From a virus: a DNA stretch of 64,000 nt. The stretch covers positions 1 to 64,000 of IMG/VR virus record IMGVR_UViG_3300027996_000014; one strand, 5' to 3'. Position 1 is the stretch's first letter. Every line of letters begins with the position of its first letter. The translations under genes were made by a program, and so were the position numbers. Shown here piece by piece: positions 8,309 to 26,718 of this stretch. The notes below the pieces were generated by a model that made no database searches, was not told the origin of the DNA, and was given only the letters and a program-made list of their open reading frames with translations.

Positions 8309-9955
8309 TTATGATTGTATTTCTGTAATTGCTGCAATTATTTGTGCTTCTGTTACAGTTTGACCTAATGGATAATTACATCCAAAAGGTATAATAATTC
8401 CTCCAAATGTCGATACATCTAATCCATCAAATGTTGCAGGATAAGTTGTATTAGATACTGAAATAACTCTATCGTCTGTATAAGCTGTAATATTTATTTT
8501 AATACTAGCTTTAGTAGTTCCTGTACCTATTGAAGTATTTCCACTACCATCATCTAATGAAATAGTTTCTCCAGTTATATATCCTGTACCTGCAGTAGTT
8601 TGAGTTACTGATATGATTTTACTAGCATCTATAACAACTGTAAATATTTTACCTGCACCTCCACTTATATCAGAAGTTGTAGTAACTCCAGTATGAGTAC
8701 CATCTGTATATCCAAAACCTAAATCTATTATTTCAAAAGTTGTACTTCCTGTAGTATATTGTTGTTTATAATTTTGATGGTTAATAACTTCTTCTCCTGC
8801 ATCTACATTCATTATAGTAGTATGTAATGGAGAATTATAAGTAGCAGGTCCTCCAGAAGCAGAATCCATTGCATCTTTTAAACTACTCATTACTATTTTT
8901 CCACTTGTATATATTTGTATAATAGGTAAAAGGGTACTAAGTATTAAATCTCCTGCAACTGAACCTACTGGCGCAGCTTGAGAAAGAGTACCTTCAACTA
9001 GTCTTAATACTGTTTCCATATGTTCAACTCTATGATTGACAGTAGGTCTTAAATCAGTAGGCATGATAGGAGAATTACTTACTAAACTGCCAACACTAGA
9101 ATTTACAAAAAATCCTCCTTCAGTACCAGTGAATACTTGAGTATTAGCTTTTTGTACAGTAGGATAAACTGATTCATCTACAAGTAATACACTTGGTGCA
9201 GCTGAAGTAGCCATAGGAATTAAAACTCTTCCTTCTATATAAACATGTCTTCCAATTACTCTAATTTTAGGATGTAACCAATTAGTAAATGATGGAAAAC
9301 CATAACCTTTTGCAATAGTATAATCATTCATGTCTATCCATCCACTATCATAAAGATCTGTAGCATTTGTTCCATTAGTTCCATTAGTACCATTAACACC
9401 AGCTGCTCCATTATTTACAAAAGAAACTATACAAGGATCATTATTAGTAAATGATCCATTAGAAGCAACGTGTGTAAGTGTAACATCATATTGATCTCCT
9501 AAATCAGCATTAGCTGTAATTATTCCCATCCAAAATATATTTGAATCAGATTTTTTACTAATTCTTAATAATCCAAAATTTCCAGAATTAGTAAACCCTG
9601 CTAAAAAAGCATTAAAATTTGTAGCATCTGCATTTGTTTCATTAATAATTATACCAGTTACAGCAGAAAGAGTAGCATTATTAAATCTAAAATCTCCTGC
9701 TGCTGTAACAGGAGTGGGAGTAGTACCATTATCAAATAACCATTCACTAGAATATCCTCCATATACACCGTTTATACCATTTCCTAATACAAAGGTTTGA
9801 GTAGTAGCATTAGTATAAGTTATAGTATATGTATCAGTAGTATTAGCAGTTCCTTGAGGAGAACCTCCAGAATTACTAGTCCAAAGAATACTTACTATAC
9901 CATTACCATCTTCTCCGCTAAATAGAGTTAGTGTATCACAACATTCATTTCCCAT
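8309..9955 (-). CDS. tail fibre protein
   Basis: GEDGNGIVSI...DTYTITYTN fibre motif and collagen-like GVNGTNGTNGTN. Confidence 0.7.
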   Translation of the reverse strand: MGNECCDTLTLFSGEDGNGIVSILWTSNSGGSPQGTANTTDTYTITYTNATTQTFVLGNGINGVYGGYSSEWLFDNGTTPTPVTAAGDFRFNNATLSAVTGIIINETNADATNFNAFLAGFTNSGNFGLLRISKKSDSNIFWMGIITANADLGDQYDVTLTHVASNGSFTNNDPCIVSFVNNGAAGVNGTNGTNGTNATDLYDSGWIDMNDYTIAKGYGFPSFTNWLHPKIRVIGRHVYIEGRVLIPMATSAAPSVLLVDESVYPTVQKANTQVFTGTEGGFFVNSSVGSLVSNSPIMPTDLRPTVNHRVEHMETVLRLVEGTLSQAAPVGSVAGDLILSTLLPIIQIYTSGKIVMSSLKDAMDSASGGPATYNSPLHTTIMNVDAGEEVINHQNYKQQYTTGSTTFEIIDLGFGYTDGTHTGVTTTSDISGGAGKIFTVVIDASKIISVTQTTAGTGYITGETISLDDGSGNTSIGTGTTKASIKINITAYTDDRVISVSNTTYPATFDGLDVSTFGGIIIPFGCNYPLGQTVTEAQIIAAITEIQS

Positions 9956-9968
9956 TGTTTCTTAATTT

Positions 9969-10583
9969 TTAACAGTCTCCACATCCACAATCGCATAAAT
10001 TATCACATATAGTTTTAGAAGTAGCAATTAATTCGTCTACTCTAGTTATATTTAAACATGAAAATGCTGATTGAATACCGTATAATAGTATTTCTAATTG
10101 ATTTATTTTATCTTTTATTTTTTCTAAAGTATTACTATCACACTCAGTAACAGATTTATTCTTTAGTTTTAGAATGCAATTTTTTAAAGTGCAAGTATTT
10201 AACATATACTGATCTTTATTAGTATATATGTTTGAGGCACTTGTTAATGTATACATTAATGAATACACACCATCTCCTATTGTCCATCCAGCTTGAGATA
10301 TAGCTAAAAATTCAGAAGGTAGGGGTGCCCCTGCTACTCCTGAATACACATCTATTACACCATTATATAATATAAAATTACTATATAAGGTAGTTTTACT
10401 ATAATCGTAAATTTCTAAATTTGCAGTTAATATTTCAGATGTATCAATATTACTTGCAACACTTCCACTATTAACCCACCCTTCAGGATTAGATGTAACG
10501 TTGTATGGTCCTGTTTGCTCATAAATATCAACTTTATCGCATTTATTAGAGATACATACTTTTATTTTTGGAACGAGAGCCAT
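9969..10583 (-). CDS. virion structural protein with Cys-rich C-terminus
   Basis: 204 aa ending CDNLCDCGCGDC; position in the structural block. Confidence 0.5.
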   Translation of the reverse strand: MALVPKIKVCISNKCDKVDIYEQTGPYNVTSNPEGWVNSGSVASNIDTSEILTANLEIYDYSKTTLYSNFILYNGVIDVYSGVAGAPLPSEFLAISQAGWTIGDGVYSLMYTLTSASNIYTNKDQYMLNTCTLKNCILKLKNKSVTECDSNTLEKIKDKINQLEILLYGIQSAFSCLNITRVDELIATSKTICDNLCDCGCGDC

Positions 10584-19134: not shown

Positions 19135-21312
19135 TTAGAATCCTATAAGACCTTCTTTTAAGCTTCTGCTATCATTAACAGTTTTCTTTACTTTCATTTT
19201 ATCAAAATATGGATCATCTAAAAATCCTTTTACTTCATTTATTCTATTATCTATAGTGTTTCTAGTAGTAGCATCATGCCACAATACCATACCTAATGAT
19301 GAAACCCTATCAAAGTTACCTTGAGGATTCCACATAATAAGTTCTCTAAGTAATGCAGGAGAATAAATAGTTTCAAGAACTCTAGTCTCACTGTTAGTAG
19401 ATACTTTTTCTAATAACCAAGATTTTATATAATCTCTAGCTGTAGAATTTACTTTTTGAGATGCATTAATTCCTTTAGATGTATTACTTCCTGTTTTATA
19501 TGTATCTGAATTACGTAATTGGTAAGGCGTATCAGCTAATAAATATAAACATTTATGTTTTTCAAAATACGTAAACATTCCTGGAAGATTTTGCTCATAC
19601 ATTCCTGTAGCGTTATAATATAATAATAATTTTCTGCAGATTTCGTAAAAATCATTAGGGTCATCTGTTCTCCCTGTATACTCAGCAACTATTTGCCTAG
19701 TATATTTATTCATTATAAATATAGAAGGTAGTGAATTAGTTGTAGATTTTGCTTTATCTACAACATCCATTCCTGCTATGTATGTACCGTAAGGAATTAT
19801 ACCTTCTTCATTACGTTGTGGTTTTACCCATATCTCTATACAACCTTCTTTTTTTTCGTGTTTCCCTAAAGGATAATTACGAATAGGCATCATATCTTGA
19901 ATGGTATCAAAATCTGGCTTATCGTCTTTATCAAATATAATGTTTCCTCTAAACGAAGATTCTAAATATTTTTTAAATTTACCTCCTTCAAGTTCACCAA
20001 GCTGATCTTTAAGATATAACGTTGGAAAGTAAGAACCTTCTAATACTAAGAATGCTTCTGAAGGAAGTACTGGACCATTAATTATTTCTGTCTGGTATAC
20101 TGTTGGATCAGTAGACTTTTTTGCTTTCTTTCTTTGATATTCAATTTGCAACCTAGCTTTAGACTCATCTGTTATAAGATCAGGTTTAACCTTATGTTCA
20201 TTTAAAGTTTTCCAATAAGGAACAAAATAACCAATTCTTCCTCTATTTTCAAAAATATCATCAAACTCTACACAATTATAATCTGCAGGGTTTCTAAATA
20301 TTCCTTCAGCATATAAAGCCGCTCTTCCAGATACAAGTCCTCCTGTACCTAAAGCCCATATTACTAAATTCTTTTTAGTTTTTGATGCTTGGGTAGCTTC
20401 AATTGCTCCCCATGATTCTTTAATATTATACATAAATCCAATCTCATCTAATGCAACAAGGTTTGGACGAGTACTATTGGCAGCTAATGGATTATCTCTA
20501 AATGTTCTGTGACGTAACAATGAACCTGTTTTAGATTCATATTCTCTATTAGGTGCTAATGACCCAGTATAAGTAGTCATCAACGGAGATGGGTAAAAAT
20601 CTTCTCCTATTCTATAAGAACCTTCTAAATGTTTAAACCCAGTTCTACATTTTTTAATTAATGGTTCAGTATATTTAGTATCAATGGCTCCTATAATAGT
20701 ATCAGATGCGATATAATCTTTAGTTTTCTTACGTTCTAAATAATTATCATAATCTGTTGCCCCATCAAATAAAAAATTATGATTAATAATTCCTGATGTA
20801 GCATATGACTTACCTCCACCTCTGGCCTGTATACTCATTAAATGCTTTGCTGAATTTTTATATAACGGCTTTCCTAAATCCTTACCGTGATTTTTACGTA
20901 AGTATTCTCTAGCTGGTATGTACGTCATAGACTTTACTTGCACTGCAGTAACTCTTCCTAACTGTAATGCTAGTTCTTTTTCTGGCCCAAACTTTCTGTC
21001 GCATGTATATGTACTATCATTAGTAAAACCTGAAAATCCTCTACACTCTTCATAGATTAGAAATAGTTCCCAATCAATATCTCTTAACCAAGGAAGCCCC
21101 GTTGCCTGTGCAACAGAGCTATCGTCTTCAAATAGAATTTTATGAAAATTAATATAATAATACAGCGGACCTGGCATCCATTTACCTCCTGACCATTTAC
21201 CCTCAATACAATAACGTTTTTGTTCTCCCCAAAAAGTAATACGTTCATAGTATTCTAATTCAGGGTGATGATTAGGTATTTCTGTAAGTTTAAAATTACT
21301 ATTGTTTACCAT
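19135..21312 (-). CDS. terL: terminase large subunit
   Basis: Walker A ARGGGKS, Walker B VALDE, GTGG coupling motif, RNase H-like IAGMD and FDRVSS. Confidence 0.9.
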   Translation of the reverse strand: MVNNSNFKLTEIPNHHPELEYYERITFWGEQKRYCIEGKWSGGKWMPGPLYYYINFHKILFEDDSSVAQATGLPWLRDIDWELFLIYEECRGFSGFTNDSTYTCDRKFGPEKELALQLGRVTAVQVKSMTYIPAREYLRKNHGKDLGKPLYKNSAKHLMSIQARGGGKSYATSGIINHNFLFDGATDYDNYLERKKTKDYIASDTIIGAIDTKYTEPLIKKCRTGFKHLEGSYRIGEDFYPSPLMTTYTGSLAPNREYESKTGSLLRHRTFRDNPLAANSTRPNLVALDEIGFMYNIKESWGAIEATQASKTKKNLVIWALGTGGLVSGRAALYAEGIFRNPADYNCVEFDDIFENRGRIGYFVPYWKTLNEHKVKPDLITDESKARLQIEYQRKKAKKSTDPTVYQTEIINGPVLPSEAFLVLEGSYFPTLYLKDQLGELEGGKFKKYLESSFRGNIIFDKDDKPDFDTIQDMMPIRNYPLGKHEKKEGCIEIWVKPQRNEEGIIPYGTYIAGMDVVDKAKSTTNSLPSIFIMNKYTRQIVAEYTGRTDDPNDFYEICRKLLLYYNATGMYEQNLPGMFTYFEKHKCLYLLADTPYQLRNSDTYKTGSNTSKGINASQKVNSTARDYIKSWLLEKVSTNSETRVLETIYSPALLRELIMWNPQGNFDRVSSLGMVLWHDATTRNTIDNRINEVKGFLDDPYFDKMKVKKTVNDSRSLKEGLIGF

Positions 21313-23789: not shown

Positions 23790-23824
23790 TACAAATATAT
23801 AATAAATTCATAAAACTAACAGTA

Positions 23825-23854
23825 CAAAGGTAATAAATTATTGTTACTATCAAA
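23825..23854 (-). promoter_or_regulatory. Bacteroidota sigma70-type promoter (TTTG-N18-TACCTTTG); second -7 box TATATTTG at 23792-23799
   Basis: Matches -33 TTTG and -7 TAnnTTTG upstream of the leftward operon. Confidence 0.55.
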
Positions 23855-23931
23855 ATGATTCTAGTATAAAGTTAAATAAAAGTTAAATAAAGTTAGGATA
23901 TCAATTTATTATAACAGTAGTAAATGCTCTA

Positions 23932-24018
23932 TTACGGTTTAAACCGTAACGCTGTTATGGGTACAGCCGTAACGTTGTTATGGTTCTAGCCGTAATAGTG
24001 GTCAGGCTAAAGCCGTAA
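23932..24018. repeat. four tandem 23-bp-period imperfect palindromes TTAYGG-N6-CCGTAA (iteron/operator-like)
   Basis: CCGTAA at 23944, 23967, 23990 and 24013; left arms TTACGG, TTATGG, TTATGG, GTCAGG. Confidence 0.9.
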
Positions 24019-24329
24019 TAGGAATGGACGTTATTTATTAGGAGTCAGTTAGTTACGTGTTTGAATATCACTCCGAATTCCCCCTATAAGATAAACTTTA
24101 TAGTTTCTAACGAATATCATCATATTTTAAAATAACTTTTTTATTATTTTTTTAAAACACTCAACTAACCGTGTGAACTTAAAAAAATTATAGACCCCCC
24201 CCTTACCTTTTATTATTTAAAAATACTTAGCGAGTATTTAAGCTGAGACCACCTATAATTTAACCCCTACTAAAAATGGGCAAGGGGAAAGTAGTCCCCC
24301 GTAAAAAATAACCCTTAAAAACTTAGGAC

Positions 24330-24638
24330 ATGAAAAATTTAAAATTAGACAGGTTAGCAAATCTGGTACAGACTTACGGAGCTAAGTTGTACAAGCAAGG
24401 AGAATCATTGGGTACCGTTGTCGTAGGACAAGAAGGCGTTACCATTGACGGAGAAGCATTAGTAATACCTAACGGTGAAGAAGGTACAATGTATATACCA
24501 TTCAGACGAGGTATAGTAGGTGAAGAAGGTAAGACGTACGAACTTCACGTATTCACAGCAGAACGTGATGCCAATGGTACGTACAACGGTGAAGCATGGT
24601 CAGTAACCAAAGGTCACGAGAAGGTATTTGCGTCATAA
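24330..24638 (+). CDS. first early gene, hypothetical
   Basis: 102 aa, less AT-rich than its flanks, followed by a terminator. Confidence 0.7.
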   Translation: MKNLKLDRLANLVQTYGAKLYKQGESLGTVVVGQEGVTIDGEALVIPNGEEGTMYIPFRRGIVGEEGKTYELHVFTAERDANGTYNGEAWSVTKGHEKVFAS

Positions 24639-24644
24639 TAGTAC

Positions 24645-24677
24645 ACCCACAATGTCGAAAGATGTTGTGGGTTTTTT
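24645..24677 (+). terminator. intrinsic terminator
   Basis: ACCCACAATGTC-GAAA-GATGTTGTGGGT followed by a T-run. Confidence 0.85.
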
Positions 24678-25268
24678 ATAACTATGTAATATACTTACAA
24701 CTTACAGTTATTTGGTCCTATTCTAACACTAATTAACTGAACTCTCAGTACTCAAGTAGTACTTGCATATGAACACGCTAAGATATTCATTATTAATACC
24801 TTATAATCATGAAAAATGATGACAATGTTGTTGTTAACGGTTGTTGTACTACACTCGCATGGCTTCTAAATCCTAATGGATAAAGCCACAATATCAATTT
24901 GATATAATATTTATAGCTCAATATTAATTACACAGGATATGTAGAGACTTCCACGTACTCGAACGGCTTATGTAACAATAATCTATAATATACAGTACAA
25001 CACCTTAACTCATAAGAACTCAGTGAATAATAGTAGCTGAGTTCTTTATTATTAACATTAAACTCTCATACAATAGTAGCATTACCCTTGGTAGATTGAC
25101 CTCTCATATTAGAATTAAACAGTCAATCCACACGGAAAATCCCTTTAATTATCTATTTAATCATTAAAAGATTAATAAGATAACAGGATATGCATCAAGG
25201 ATTAGAACCTTGTGAGAGCTTATTATTTAATGACAAAAACATAAGTTTTAACCATTAAATATATTAAA

Positions 25269-25391
25269 ATGATAGTAGTAAAAACAGGAAAAGAGCTTGA
25301 TAAACTCTGGAACGAATTAATGCAAAAATCAAGGTGCAACCTTGTAGAGAAGATATTGATATATACTCACGAGGTATATATTATAGAGTAA
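25269..25391 (+). CDS. small hypothetical protein (40 aa)
   Basis: Manual translation MIVVKTGKELDKLWNELMQK...; A-rich leader. Confidence 0.4.
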   Translation: MIVVKTGKELDKLWNELMQKSRCNLVEKILIYTHEVYIIE

Positions 25392-26158
25392 TAGGTACTG
25401 CAGTACTGATAAGTGAGACTAGCGACAGCCCTTAGCCCTTGTTACAACAAGGTGGTCTAAGACGGAATATGAAGAAGTTTTATTTTACTTGTACTTATTA
25501 AAAACATTACCTTCTGAAGAGTTACCTCAAGCACATAGAAGATGTAAAACTGCGCAGGATGAACCTGCTGAGTTAGCTCACTCTTAGAGGTGGGCAGGTA
25601 ATAATATTGGTCAAACCTATGACCATGTGACTATAACCGTATCCTGTGAAATTCAGTATAAATATAGAAAACCGACTTTAATCACAAAAGAAAGGTAAGG
25701 GAAAGTGTGACCTCTGTTAGATACAAGTTAAGATGCATATAACCTTATCCAGTGTACCCTTGAAATGCCATTTGAGAGGGAATCGTAAGCGTTAACTATA
25801 ACGTGCTTTAAGCAATATAATAGTACACTGAGGAGTTGGCGGCAAGAGATAAATCGGCTCATGGTCCAGTTGCCGAGTGCCTAATAAGAGAGTCTGGAGT
25901 ACCAGTAGAAATAAGCACTTATTTATCTCGTGACCATTGAAAGATGGTACTAATACATAATAAAGCTAACCTCTTGACAATGTTAGGACTTGTAAAGTCA
26001 AGTATAAAAGCATACTAACAAGGTATGGTGGTGTATATAACACGTAATAAACTCCTACTAAGATGAAAGCACCTTGTTTATTTATTAATAAATTACTTTA
26101 TATAATAATGTGGTTTCACCCTATTGGCTTAGCTCTGTGTAAATCCCACATTTATTAT
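25389..26158 (+). ncRNA. candidate large structured ncRNA or cluster of structured RNAs
   Basis: No ORF of 60 aa or more, raised GC, series of nested long-range helices and T-loop-like TGAAA hairpins; strand inferred from flanking genes. Confidence 0.55.
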
Positions 26159-26184
26159 ATTATTAACCCTTTAAACTTATAACA

Positions 26185-26352
26185 ATGAAAAATTTAATAA
26201 CATTTATATTGATGATTACATTAGTATCATGCGGTACTTCTAAACATAAATCATGTACTAAAACAAAAACTTATCGAGTTAAAACTAATAAACAAAAGTT
26301 TAACTCAAATAAAAATAATAGTTCTTTTAATAAAAAAAGACATAACTTATAA
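26185..26352 (+). CDS. small basic lipoprotein (55 aa)
   Basis: Manual translation MKNLITFILMITLVSCGTSK...; lipobox LVSC. Confidence 0.6.
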   Translation: MKNLITFILMITLVSCGTSKHKSCTKTKTYRVKTNKQKFNSNKNNSSFNKKRHNL

Positions 26353-26391
26353 TAAATTATGTCTTAAATTAACCCTTTAAATACTTATATT

Positions 26392-26718
26392 ATGAACAGA
26401 TTTAACCTCATTTGCAAGTTCTTACGTGGTAAAAACATGCTATCAATCGAAACAATTAATCATTATTTAGATAATCCACATTTAATGGATGATATTGAAT
26501 TAATGCTATATCCTACTATACAAAAGAAAATTAAAGATTTCATTAAGCTTAACATGAAGCTTAATAAACATATTGATGTTATGTCAATAGTAAATTGTAT
26601 AGATTTTAGACCAGATATAGTTGTTGAAAATCTTACTTACTTAATTAATACAGGTCAAGTTAAAAAAGAAATAATTGGATTTAATAGTTCTTACAAGTTA
26701 ATTAATCACTCACTTTAG
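26392..26718 (+). CDS. hypothetical protein, possible wHTH C-terminus
   Basis: 108 aa ORF with A-rich leader. Confidence 0.55.
   Translation: MNRFNLICKFLRGKNMLSIETINHYLDNPHLMDDIELMLYPTIQKKIKDFIKLNMKLNKHIDVMSIVNCIDFRPDIVVENLTYLINTGQVKKEIIGFNSSYKLINHSL

Follow-up and report, generated by a model that had tools for sequence, protein, structure and literature searches.

To our knowledge, there are few large structured RNAs with a conserved core, and almost all classes of them examined so far are ribozymes, riboswitches or components of ribonucleoprotein machines. The known ornate RNAs have variable halves. The closest described systems are GOLLD and ROOL, which in the account of Weinberg et al. 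(2017, PMC5737381) occur near tRNAs and in prophages, with co-transcription as a possibility, and which a cryo-EM report (10.1101/2024.12.08.627333) describes as multimeric cages. A further point of comparison is the Cellulophaga crAss-like phage phi14:2 (KC821624), by terminase the closest cultured relative of the phage considered here (33% identity). As described in 10.1101/2020.03.07.982082, its genome has at the early end two long stretches between genes (g004-g005 and g005-g006) that are transcribed more strongly than most genes; their transcripts are on from the first time point, persist in abundance and are given there as being of unknown function.

The window, which is the whole stretch of 64,000 nt of DNA of a marine crAss-like phage that was analysed, contains at positions 25389-26158 a region that a first-pass annotation had proposed to be an ornate RNA of about 770 nt or an array of small RNAs. 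Its central idea, a real structured RNA without an Rfam family, held up. Comparative support is lacking for the 214 nt at the start of the region and for the 50 nt at its end. Comparison with related loci indicates that positions 25609-25955 on the + strand encode a structured non-coding RNA of about 350 nt, a member of an uncatalogued family that we call M1. The region as a whole is better described as a mosaic of RNA modules.

Content and folding of the stretch at 25389-26158

The region had been called ORF-free and GC-enriched, and both descriptions are borne out. The longest ORFs overlapping it have 44, 40, 39 and 34 aa, none reaching 45 aa, and its GC content is 0.38-0.40 (25400-26000) as compared to 0.19-0.26 downstream. 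A recoded protein gene was considered and dropped, as neither TAG read as Q, nor TGA read as sense (table 4), nor TAA read as Q opened a credible frame. A pseudogene was likewise rejected: six-frame tblastn gave only all-frame, nucleotide-level matches to L003 (24667-25260) and nothing for 25260-26200. The same search of 25260-26200 against 65 terminase-relative loci returned nothing, and neither did 25230-25610 and 26090-26400 against all loci. A conserved micro-ORF of 24 aa lies 700 nt upstream (24809-24883), so that the "ORF-free" zone is not wholly non-coding. The adjoining 102-aa protein, used as a handle for relatives, yielded no confirmed loci.

A covariance-model search, suggested along with the first-pass annotation, returned no Rfam 15 match at gathering score in the whole window or at E<=10 in 23800-26400, and the region is uncatalogued, as had been supposed; group I and II introns and known ribozymes had no Rfam 15 match in the window either. 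ARAGORN called no tRNA or tmRNA gene across the 64 kb, and blastn against 50,697 GenBank phage records gave nothing for 24600-26200 or for M1 alone at E<=1. No described family was found in the literature, the comparison covering sources other than the supplementary motif sheets (DUF805b) of Weinberg et al. (2017), and motif strings met only unrelated primer matches there. A sigma-70-type promoter scan was uninformative (26 found, 24.9 expected), and a terminator scan found none on the + strand within 25389-26158. The string AACCCTTTAAA, tried as a promoter-like repeat, was dropped at 6 matches against 4.6 expected.

The features of the region are as follows.

25389-25500, + strand: D1, hairpin domain closed by TAATAGGTAC/GTACTTATTA (z -1.65, 13 of 200 shuffles equal or better)
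25506-25602, + strand: D2, hairpin domain closed by ATTACCT/AGGTAAT with inner GCAGG/CCTGC (z -2.31, 7 of 200 shuffles)
25609-25955, + strand: predicted M1 RNA, 347 nt, with blocks B1-B6 in fixed order and helices P1-P9
25609-25624, + strand: P1 hairpin (block B1), GGUC/GACC around the conserved loop AAACCUAU
25626-25686, + strand: P2, UGUGA/UCACA closing a variable insert
25694-25700 (GGUAAGG) with 25743-25749 (CCUUAUC), + strand: P3, enclosing P4 and conserved internal-loop strands
25705-25709 with 25736-25740, + strand: P4, inside P3
25750-25830, + strand: P5, CAGUGUA/UACACUG, enclosing P6 and P7
25757-25761 (CCCUU) with 25776-25780 (GAGGG), + strand: P6, with loop GAAAUGCCAUUUGA
25783-25823, + strand: P7, variable insert within P5
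25831-25845, + strand: joint AGGAGUUGGCGGCAA (block B4), conserved and single-stranded; near-invariant, but also a search anchor
25846-25929, + strand: P8, optional domain closed by GAGAUAAAU/AUUUAUCUC
25933-25955, + strand: P9 hairpin and tail (blocks B5 and B6), ACCAU-UGAAAG-AUGGU followed by conserved ACUAAUA
25950-26089, + strand: predicted module M2', with hairpins CUAAC/GUUAG (25966-25986) and ACUUG-UAAAGU-CAAGU (25988-26003), a long helix and a U-rich tail
26017-26078, + strand: long helix of M2', AACAAGGU/ACCUUGUU, closing the module and followed by a U-rich run
26108-26165, + strand: last hairpin, AUGUGG/CCACAU (helix to 26158), followed by a U/A-rich run (z -0.34)

M2' and the last hairpin lie between M1 and the next ORF downstream, which starts at 26185. 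Each of the eight helix pairs named in the first-pass annotation is present where it was placed. On the + strand the stretch as a whole does not fold better than chance (791 nt, -180.3 as compared to -181.0±5.9 in shuffles; z 0.12, 11 of 20 shuffles equal or better), and the - strand of the same 791 nt gives z -2.1. Individual domains, chosen via their closing helices, range from z -0.3 to -2.3 on the + strand.

Members, structure and covariation of M1

Homologues were found in viral and metagenome contigs by exact 17-23-mers taken from conserved blocks, and for this reason the invariance of B3 and B4 is partly due to ascertainment. Eight viral contigs contain an exact 23-mer of the window; a 17-mer anchor occurs in 21 stretches (2 judged chance by eye) and an 18-mer anchor in 96 metagenome stretches. 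B3 blocks are present in 100 of 129 anchor matches; 64 carry B1, B3 and B6, among them 47 unique full-length members (220-589 nt). The order of blocks is constant across the members, with inserts of 2 to 183 nt between them. A third scan, with a 17-mer of B2, gave no unbiased sample of variation in B3 and B4, since five of its seven stretches were known already, L196 lies at a contig end and L197 was rejected as a chance match in a giant-virus MAG. In the window all of B1-B6 are present in order, with 0-2 mismatches each.

A covariance model of the core, R1, matches the window at 25686-25845 (130.6 bits, E 7e-36, model positions 1-161), a match that is partly by construction because the window is among the 18 seed sequences; 79 matches in other loci score at least 60 bits. 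In the 18 core sequences 93.5% of cells are paired as compared to 29-49% with slid partners, and at 10 pairs both partners have changed (4.0±1.1 in shuffles, none of 500 reaching that count). With 70 distinct cores, in an alignment fitted to the model, the figures are 93.0% as compared to 24-49% for pairing and 20 of 25 pairs, as compared to 7.2±1.7 in shuffles (0 of 500), for changes of both partners. Covariation among homologues, which had been proposed as a check on the RNA reading, is thus present and strong in the M1 core. Frequent G-U pairs (P6 pair 5 is U-G in 45 sequences, P4 pair 1 is G-U in 30) place the predicted RNA on the + strand, since they would be A-C pairs on the other strand. 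The clustered neighbouring ORFs are all on the same strand as M1.

The fixed core consists of P1, the stacked P3/P4, P5 enclosing P6, the joints and the terminal hairpin P9, with purine-rich joints UAAAAGAA.., GAAA/AUAA and AGGAGUUGGCAGC; optional or variable are the P2 insert, the tip of P4, P7, P8 and the P9 extension. P1 is paired in 46-47 of 47 members, the sole change being C-G to U-G in seven. Pairing in P3 is complete (100%) in A5 and stands at about 99% in A8; there are changes from G-C to A-U and from G-C to C-G, and all six pairs of P4 change on both sides. P5 and P6 are 93% and 95% paired, respectively, and show C-G to U-A double changes. The stems of P2 covary across members (GTGAAC/GTTCAC, GTGGT/ACCAC, GTTAAC/GTTAAC); its insert is shrunk to a GNRA loop in three members, and in three others P2 is absent altogether. 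P8 occurs in 34 of 47 members, with pairs 1-7 paired in all 34 and pair 7 covarying (A-U 27, G-C 3, U-A 1). Contigs from other samples, one each in X2, X3 and X4, carry a variant in which a 6-nt linker replaces 25779-25823 (joint 25778 to 25824). A pseudoknot is possible between the AGGAGUUGGCGGCAA joint and UGCCA in the loop of P6 (UGCCA:UGGCA), a candidate outside the reach of covariation because its columns do not vary.

Of the helices named in the first-pass annotation, four have comparative support, as has one named hairpin. TGTGA/TCACA corresponds to P2, CAGTGTAC/GTACACTG to P5, GAGATAAAT/ATTTATCTC to P8 and the ACCAT/ATGGT hairpin to P9, each backed by covariation, while AACAAGGT/ACCTTGTT is the closing helix of M2' and invariant in 6 of 6 sequences. 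For TAATAGGTAC/GTACTTATTA, ATTACCT/AGGTAAT with GCAGG/CCTGC, and ATGTGG/CCACAT no homologue was found, hence they are supported neither way. P1, P3, P4 and P6 had been missed. The TGAAA loops described as T-loop-like lack conservation: one belongs to a variable insert, and the other, at the tip of P9, gives way to long hairpins in the 33 of 47 members with an extended P9, where pair 8 covaries (A-U 25, G-C 7).

As to expression, a marine metatranscriptome contig of 247 nt (X24) equals 25631-25877 exactly (0 mismatches, 0 gaps), with strand and ends not given and DNA carry-over possible. The rest of 24300-26700 is uncovered in X24 and a second contig gives a 34-nt match of low identity, which has no bearing on transcription of the flanks either way. 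Depth in the DNA run X3 is higher over 25739-25838; as it consists of per-contig sums, it was not counted as evidence. The facts that bear on the very early expression and the anti-defence decoy suggested in the first-pass annotation are the X24 contig and a likeness in position to the early transcripts of phi14:2.

Distribution, neighbours and the module M2'

The distribution of M1 among uncultured marine phages is patchy. Distant crAss-like phages make up most of the carriers examined; another carrier, a contig of 191 kb, has no related terminase. In five large M1-bearing contigs, the terminase is 26-35% identical to that of the window in four, and none was found in the fifth. R1 detects no M1 in the 65 terminase-relative loci, 32 of which reach at least 4.8 kb on that side and none of which exceeds 21 bits. 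Among 87 genomes of the order Flavobacteriales it gives a single strong match, on a 31.9-kb contig of the linking MAG. By these searches M1 is not a host housekeeping RNA. A 30-bit match in G019, considered as a host-encoded homologue, reads by eye as lysine/glutamate-rich coding sequence and was rejected. R1 also gives a 23-bit match in G030.

M1 has no fixed partner among the neighbouring protein clusters, the largest of which occurs in 10 of 74 contexts, and a tRNA lies within 3 kb (ARAGORN) in 3 of 74. Another non-coding module, not a gene, follows 25 of 64 copies, and L082 carries two tandem copies. Of 45 flanks upstream of M1, 6 have T-arm-like motifs, as compared to 39 of 1846 control segments. 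Directly 5' of B2 in L069 stands a tRNA-like sequence, by eye seemingly replacing P1 and P2, where ARAGORN made no call.

The remaining modules are distributed differently. A second model, R2, built for M2', scores 115.6 bits in the window and 107-161 bits in L011, L018, L021, L022, L024, L029 and L056, all of which are without M1; it finds nothing in phi14:2 or in 21 M1-bearing loci searched. With compensatory changes at 5 of 25 pairs across 6 sequences, M2' is predicted to be a second, independent covarying RNA module unrelated to M1. D1 is without a homologue in about 190 loci (blastn, nhmmer, six-frame tblastn) and is so far seen only in this phage; it may be a leader, a separate RNA or a spacer. 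D2, which ARAGORN does not call as a tRNA, and the last hairpin, which the terminator scan does not list, are also without homologues in the loci searched and so far private to this phage. The last hairpin may be the terminator of the transcript.

That the whole of 25389-26158 is one ornate RNA of about 770 nt, with its domains folding together in a manner comparable to GOLLD and ROOL, we consider unlikely. All domains stand head to tail on one strand with no obvious terminator between them, M1 members elsewhere also carry extra 5' and 3' modules (25 of 64 share a downstream module), and a variable half would be in keeping with known ornate RNAs. However, M2' occurs in seven relatives without M1 and M1 in none of the terminase relatives, the flanking hairpin domains are without any homologue, the smallest family members have only 220 nt, and the whole stretch folds no better than its shuffles. 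The separate distribution of M1 and M2' among phages favours the mosaic, the modules of which lie on the coding strand of the early-side gene block and could be co-transcribed and then trimmed. Hardly credible is the reading in which the stretch is no RNA gene at all and is instead a DNA-level element, such as a recombination hotspot or a protein-binding site, or is tiled by micro-ORFs. The conserved micro-ORF upstream would fit it, as would an indel hotspot between close relatives: L003, the closest (terminase 91% identical), has 146 nt in place of window positions 25230-26368 (1138 nt). Against it, compensatory changes by which G-C, A-U and G-U pairing is preserved on one strand are a signature of RNA and not of a DNA or protein constraint. 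Insert lengths are not multiples of three (residues 0/1/2 in 22/12/13 members), the sole conserved ATG (block B3b) opens just 7 codons in the window, and the six-frame searches were empty.

Possible functions and comparison with described phage RNAs

An M1 RNA gene within a mosaic of modules is in our judgement the likely explanation of the locus as a whole. How it works is a more tentative matter: M1 might act in trans as a compactly folded RNA. A tertiary core, made up of its invariant unpaired nucleotides, would bind a conserved host molecule, be it a protein, an RNA or a small ligand, and M1 would serve as decoy, sponge or modulator during infection; it would not regulate a neighbouring gene. 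The binding of a conserved host factor is our best guess and a tentative one. The analysis turned up no pointer to one specific target, and comparison with a Flavobacteriales rRNA operon revealed no mimicry or complementarity beyond chance (7 ten-mers, 6.6 expected). A ribozyme, in which the junction nucleotides and the possible pseudoknot would make up a catalytic core that processes itself or acts on host RNA, seems to us improbable. About 100 near-invariant nucleotides mainly in junctions and loops, covarying helices and an optional periphery make a pattern typical of large ribozymes; the T-arm-like motifs upstream suggest ends made by processing, and the tRNA-like sequence of L069 in the apparent place of P1 and P2 points the same way. 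Yet the same pattern of conservation is found in aptamers, the invariance of the blocks is partly ascertainment, no Rfam 15 ribozyme family matches, and no conserved context of a cleavage site was identified. Less probable still is a leader acting in cis on the early genes downstream, whether as a riboswitch-like sensor or as an element of translation or antitermination. M1 and its flanking genes always share a strand, and in 18 of 47 contexts an ORF (ATG, at least 50 aa) starts 11-57 nt after the 3' end of M1; since these copies lie within 60 nt of an ORF start, a role in cis is possible in some phages. But these 18 ORFs belong to as many as 15 unrelated clusters, many copies precede another RNA module (in the window M2' and a hairpin stand before the ORF at 26185), the consensus has no expression platform (terminator or start-site sequestering helix) after P9, and tandem copies occur in L082.

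A bolder reading, which we regard as rather unlikely, is that M1 represents a new catalytic or ligand-binding class of RNA passed among phages, either a self-processing ribozyme or a high-copy aptamer sponge for a conserved host molecule. Targets of such a sponge could be, for instance, an immune signalling nucleotide or a translation factor, and it would be the first RNA-only counterpart of the anti-defence protein sponges of phages. The patchy, horizontal spread of M1 suggests an accessory, conflict-related role rather than one in core replication. With at least 70 distinct natural cores, a minimal form of 220 nt, defined optional domains and clear covariation, M1 is ready for structure probing, cryo-EM and activity screens.

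The first-pass annotation had pointed to GOLLD and ROOL, and kinship with them was not found with Rfam models: neither the GOLLD nor the ROOL model matched the window (E<=10 on 23800-26400) or M1 in 22 other loci of the family, where no other Rfam 15 family matched over M1 either. M1 is also smaller (220-589 nt, 347 nt in the window), is found in marine Bacteroidota-type phages whereas GOLLD and ROOL are found in phages of Lactobacillales, rumen or lake, and has a tRNA called by ARAGORN within 3 kb in 3 of 74 contexts. It resembles them in being a stand-alone, large, multi-domain phage RNA with a conserved core, variable or optional domains and no partner protein, and may do so in the T-arm-like sequences upstream of 6 of 45 copies. 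As regards phi14:2, R1 scores no higher than 10.3 bits in the first 12 kb (filters off) and finds nothing across the whole genome, and blocks B1, B3, B3b and B4 are absent at up to 3 mismatches; judged by these searches, its early transcripts are not members of the M1 family. The likeness to phi14:2 is one of position only: in both phages long ORF-poor regions open a rightward early gene block and lie on the strand of its genes. In marine crAss-like phages M1 is part of the early gene block, and the counterpart region of phi14:2 yields the most puzzling transcripts of its infection. A function found for M1 could therefore explain what such "long non-coding RNAs" of phages are for.

Genome setting and the gene-free stretch

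The window spans positions 1-64,000 of an IMG/VR virus record that is 88,208 nt long. Terminase (19135-21312, - strand), portal and major head are encoded on the minus strand and DNA polymerase on the plus strand, with the divergence point of transcription at about 23.8-24.3 kb. By terminase, the nearest cultured relative is the Cellulophaga crAss-like phage phi14:2 (KC821624; 33% identity across 93% of the protein). Exact pieces of the stretch under study, 25389-26158, are present in three seawater metagenome runs, each belonging to a different study.

The first-pass annotation described this stretch as ORF-free, GC-enriched and divided into domains closed by long-range helices. This description holds: from the terminator at 24645-24672 to the ORF at 26185 the longest ORF has at most 46 aa, the GC content of 25400-26000 is 0.38-0.40 versus 0.19-0.26 immediately downstream, and all eight of the eight named helix pairs were located at their coordinates. 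A recoded reading frame across the stretch was rejected, since altered stop codons open no ORF. Folding energy by itself does not set the stretch apart: the + strand of 791 nt folds at -180.3 kcal/mol versus -181.0±5.9 in shuffles (z 0.12), and the - strand of the same 791 nt gives z -2.1. Separate domains reach z-scores of -0.3 to -2.3, which are weak because the domains were picked via their closing helices. Rfam 15 gave nothing at gathering score across the window and nothing at E<=10 in 23800-26400, and ARAGORN reports zero tRNAs in the window.

Further elements lie upstream. At the divergent switch, 23929-24021 carries direct repeats of 23 nt and inverted repeats of 45 nt, nested and built on CTATTACGG...CCGTAATAG, 90% conserved in the related loci L003 and L004 and matching in both orientations; an operator or a cluster of origin-like iterons is a possible identity. 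Within 24330-24672 (+), a 102-aa ORF (GC 0.44 against a background of about 0.25), without PHROG family and without relatives found in viral contigs, is followed by the region's strongest intrinsic terminator (12-bp stem 24645-24672 plus T run). The conserved block M0 (24735-25050, +) looks non-coding and is common to the window, L003 and L151, a carrier of the RNA family M1 (25609-25955, +). M0 holds a conserved 24-aa micro-ORF at 24809-24883, MKNDDNVVVNGCCTTLAWLLNPNG, whose length and stop do not differ between the three phages, and the block's 3' end is an invariant terminator-like hairpin (25013-25046).

Architecture and covariation of M1

A 23-mer of 25757-25779 was found in 8 viral contigs, and the commoner form of the 17-mer from 25827 onward in 21 stretches, two of them GC-rich coding DNA by eye. 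An 18-mer occurred in 96 metagenome stretches and in 7 contigs of species-representative genomes, with other M1 blocks in one of the seven, a 31.9-kb Flavobacteriales MAG contig. Neighbouring blocks accompanied 100 of 129 anchor hits; 64 spanned the whole series of blocks, and among these 64 there were 47 unique sequences (220-589 nt). The order of the six blocks is constant, with spacers of 2-183 nt. P2 is absent altogether in three members and has its insert cut to a GNRA loop in another three, while the P8 domain is present in 34 and a long P9 in 33 of the 47 members.

Helices of M1 in the window (+ strand)
25609-25612 with 25621-25624, helix P1
25626-25630 with 25682-25686, helix P2
25694-25700 with 25743-25749, helix P3
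25705-25709 with 25736-25740, helix P4
25750-25756 with 25824-25830, helix P5
25757-25761 with 25776-25780, helix P6
25846-25854 with 25921-25929, helix P8
25933-25937 with 25944-25948, helix P9

In the first covariation set, an 18-sequence MAFFT alignment of the M1 core with helices drawn by hand, 93.5% of cells were paired versus 29-49% with partners slid by 1-3 columns, and both sides had changed at ten pairs versus 4.0±1.1 in shuffles (0/500 as high). P3 was 100% paired in this set, with exchanges of G-C to A-U and of G-C to C-G. The core covariance model R1, built from this alignment, gave 90 matches at E<=1e-3 in a search of 100 loci, and 80 of these matches reached 60 bits or more. Among 70 distinct cores, in an alignment itself fitted to R1, 93.0% of cells were paired versus 24-49% when slid, and both-side changes occurred in 20 of 25 pairs versus 7.2±1.7. 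The RNA is assigned to the + strand because G-U pairs recur at fixed positions; the neighbouring ORFs are all on M1's strand.

Contigs from three DNA runs and one RNA run were compared with 24300-26700. A marine metatranscriptome contig of 247 nt is identical to 25631-25877. In all three DNA runs one contig joins 25778 to 25824 via six other letters, and contig loose ends at 25739 and 25852 mark a piece that also occurs in other sequence contexts. The variant joint and the loose ends suggest a module common to other genomes.

M1 is also found in tandem, with two strong cores 324 nt apart in L082 (11529-11666, 11778-11990). Weak second copies of 28-29 bits beside a strong one (L080 360-528, L146 14392-14560, L142 7-143) suggest, by sequence, divergent paralogues.

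Distribution of M1 and its flanking modules

R1 scored 130.6 bits in the window, whereas its best score was 20.8 bits across 65 related loci collected via terminase, 32 of which extend at least 4.8 kb toward the site; the nearer relatives of the window's phage are thus without M1. In 87 genomes of the MAG's order, the strong match was solely in the MAG's own contig; the next-best reads as coding sequence and was discarded. Blastn at E<=1 gave no M1 match in GenBank phage records. Five large viral contigs with M1 were compared by terminase: four encode one with 26-35% identity to that of the window, and in the fifth, of 191 kb, no related terminase was found. From R1 scores and terminase comparison we therefore conclude that M1 has a patchy distribution, in distant marine crAss-like phages and in one further lineage or more.

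The closest relative covering the site, L003 (terminase 91% identical), ceases to align at 25230 and resumes at 26368, with 146 unrelated, hairpin-rich bases (2007-2153) facing 1138 nt of the window. These 1138 nt contain a 40-aa ORF, the hairpin domains D1 (25389-25500) and D2 (25506-25602), M1, M2', a hairpin and a 55-aa lipoprotein-like ORF; 25230-26368 is an indel hotspot. The sole part recurring among more distant terminase relatives is 25960-26090, whose copies (L011, L018, L021, L022, L024, L029, L056) are intergenic and 5' of differing small ORFs.

M2' (25950-26089, +) is a module separate from M1. Six sequences show two covarying hairpins, one with the constant loop UAAAGU, and an invariant 8-bp helix AACAAGGU/ACCUUGUU followed by a U-rich run. 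In the window its covariance model R2 scored 115.6 bits; seven relatives without M1 gave 107-161 bits, and there was no match in phi14:2 or among 21 M1-bearing loci searched. Of the two proposals, a single RNA of about 770 nt or an array of small RNAs, the separate occurrence of M1 and M2' favours the array. Homologues of 25389-25602 and 26090-26400 were absent from all loci collected (blastn, six-frame tblastn).

In M2'-bearing terminase relatives, ARAGORN calls a tRNA-like gene some 0.5-0.8 kb 5' of M2', assigned to His and having an unusual anticodon, ATG:
L018 5154-5226, - strand, His(ATG) tRNA-like gene
L021 5444-5516, - strand, His(ATG) tRNA-like gene
L024 699-771, - strand, His(ATG) tRNA-like gene
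L029 1002-1076, - strand, His(ATG) tRNA-like gene

Neighbours, possible function and comparison with phi14:2

No constant partner protein was found for M1, the largest cluster occupying 10 of 74 contexts. An ORF starts 11-57 nt 3' of M1 in 18 of 47 contexts, these ORFs forming 15 clusters, and in 25 of 64 contexts M1 is followed by another shared non-coding module. ARAGORN places a tRNA within 3 kb of M1 in 3 of 74 contexts, and T-arm-like motifs occur in 6 of 45 upstream flanks versus 39 of 1846 control segments. In L069, a sequence that is tRNA-like by eye (ARAGORN calls none) seems to stand in place of P1 and P2.

The same locus carries a phage tmRNA (RF00023, 58.2 bits; 9765-10142, -) about 2 kb from its M1 copy. 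Directly 3' of M1 there is often a small ORF whose N-terminus resembles a signal sequence or lipobox (L107, L137, L100, L151, L114 and the window's 26185-26352 (+), with ...LVSCG). DUF805b, a 35-nt Rfam motif (47 bits), is also seen 3' of M1, at about 230 nt in L073 (62-96, -) and about 130 nt in L168 (1474-1506, +); its apparent place in L073 is close to the 3' end of the module trailing M1 in those 25 contexts.

Tentatively, and with distinctly less than even confidence, M1 best fits a folded RNA acting in trans, with some conserved host component as its binding partner. It may instead be a ribozyme, a cis-leader or a multimeric scaffold. The trans-acting reading is favoured by the strong conservation of unpaired nucleotides, by the finding of neither a partner protein nor a regulated gene, and by horizontal spread together with a place among small early-side genes. 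No particular target emerged from the computations. Complementarity and identity to a Flavobacteriales rRNA operon are at chance level.

With filters off, R1 reached at most 10.3 bits over the first 12 kb of phi14:2; genome-wide it had zero matches, and the M1 blocks are absent. For this phage, Drobysheva et al. (bioRxiv 10.1101/2020.03.07.982082) report two long intergenic regions toward the left end whose rightward transcription exceeds that of most genes, is seen from the first time point and does not fall off; the transcripts are termed long non-coding RNAs of unknown function. By R1, R2 and block searches these transcripts are not homologous to the window's RNA block. The block lies in the same place relative to the gene modules.
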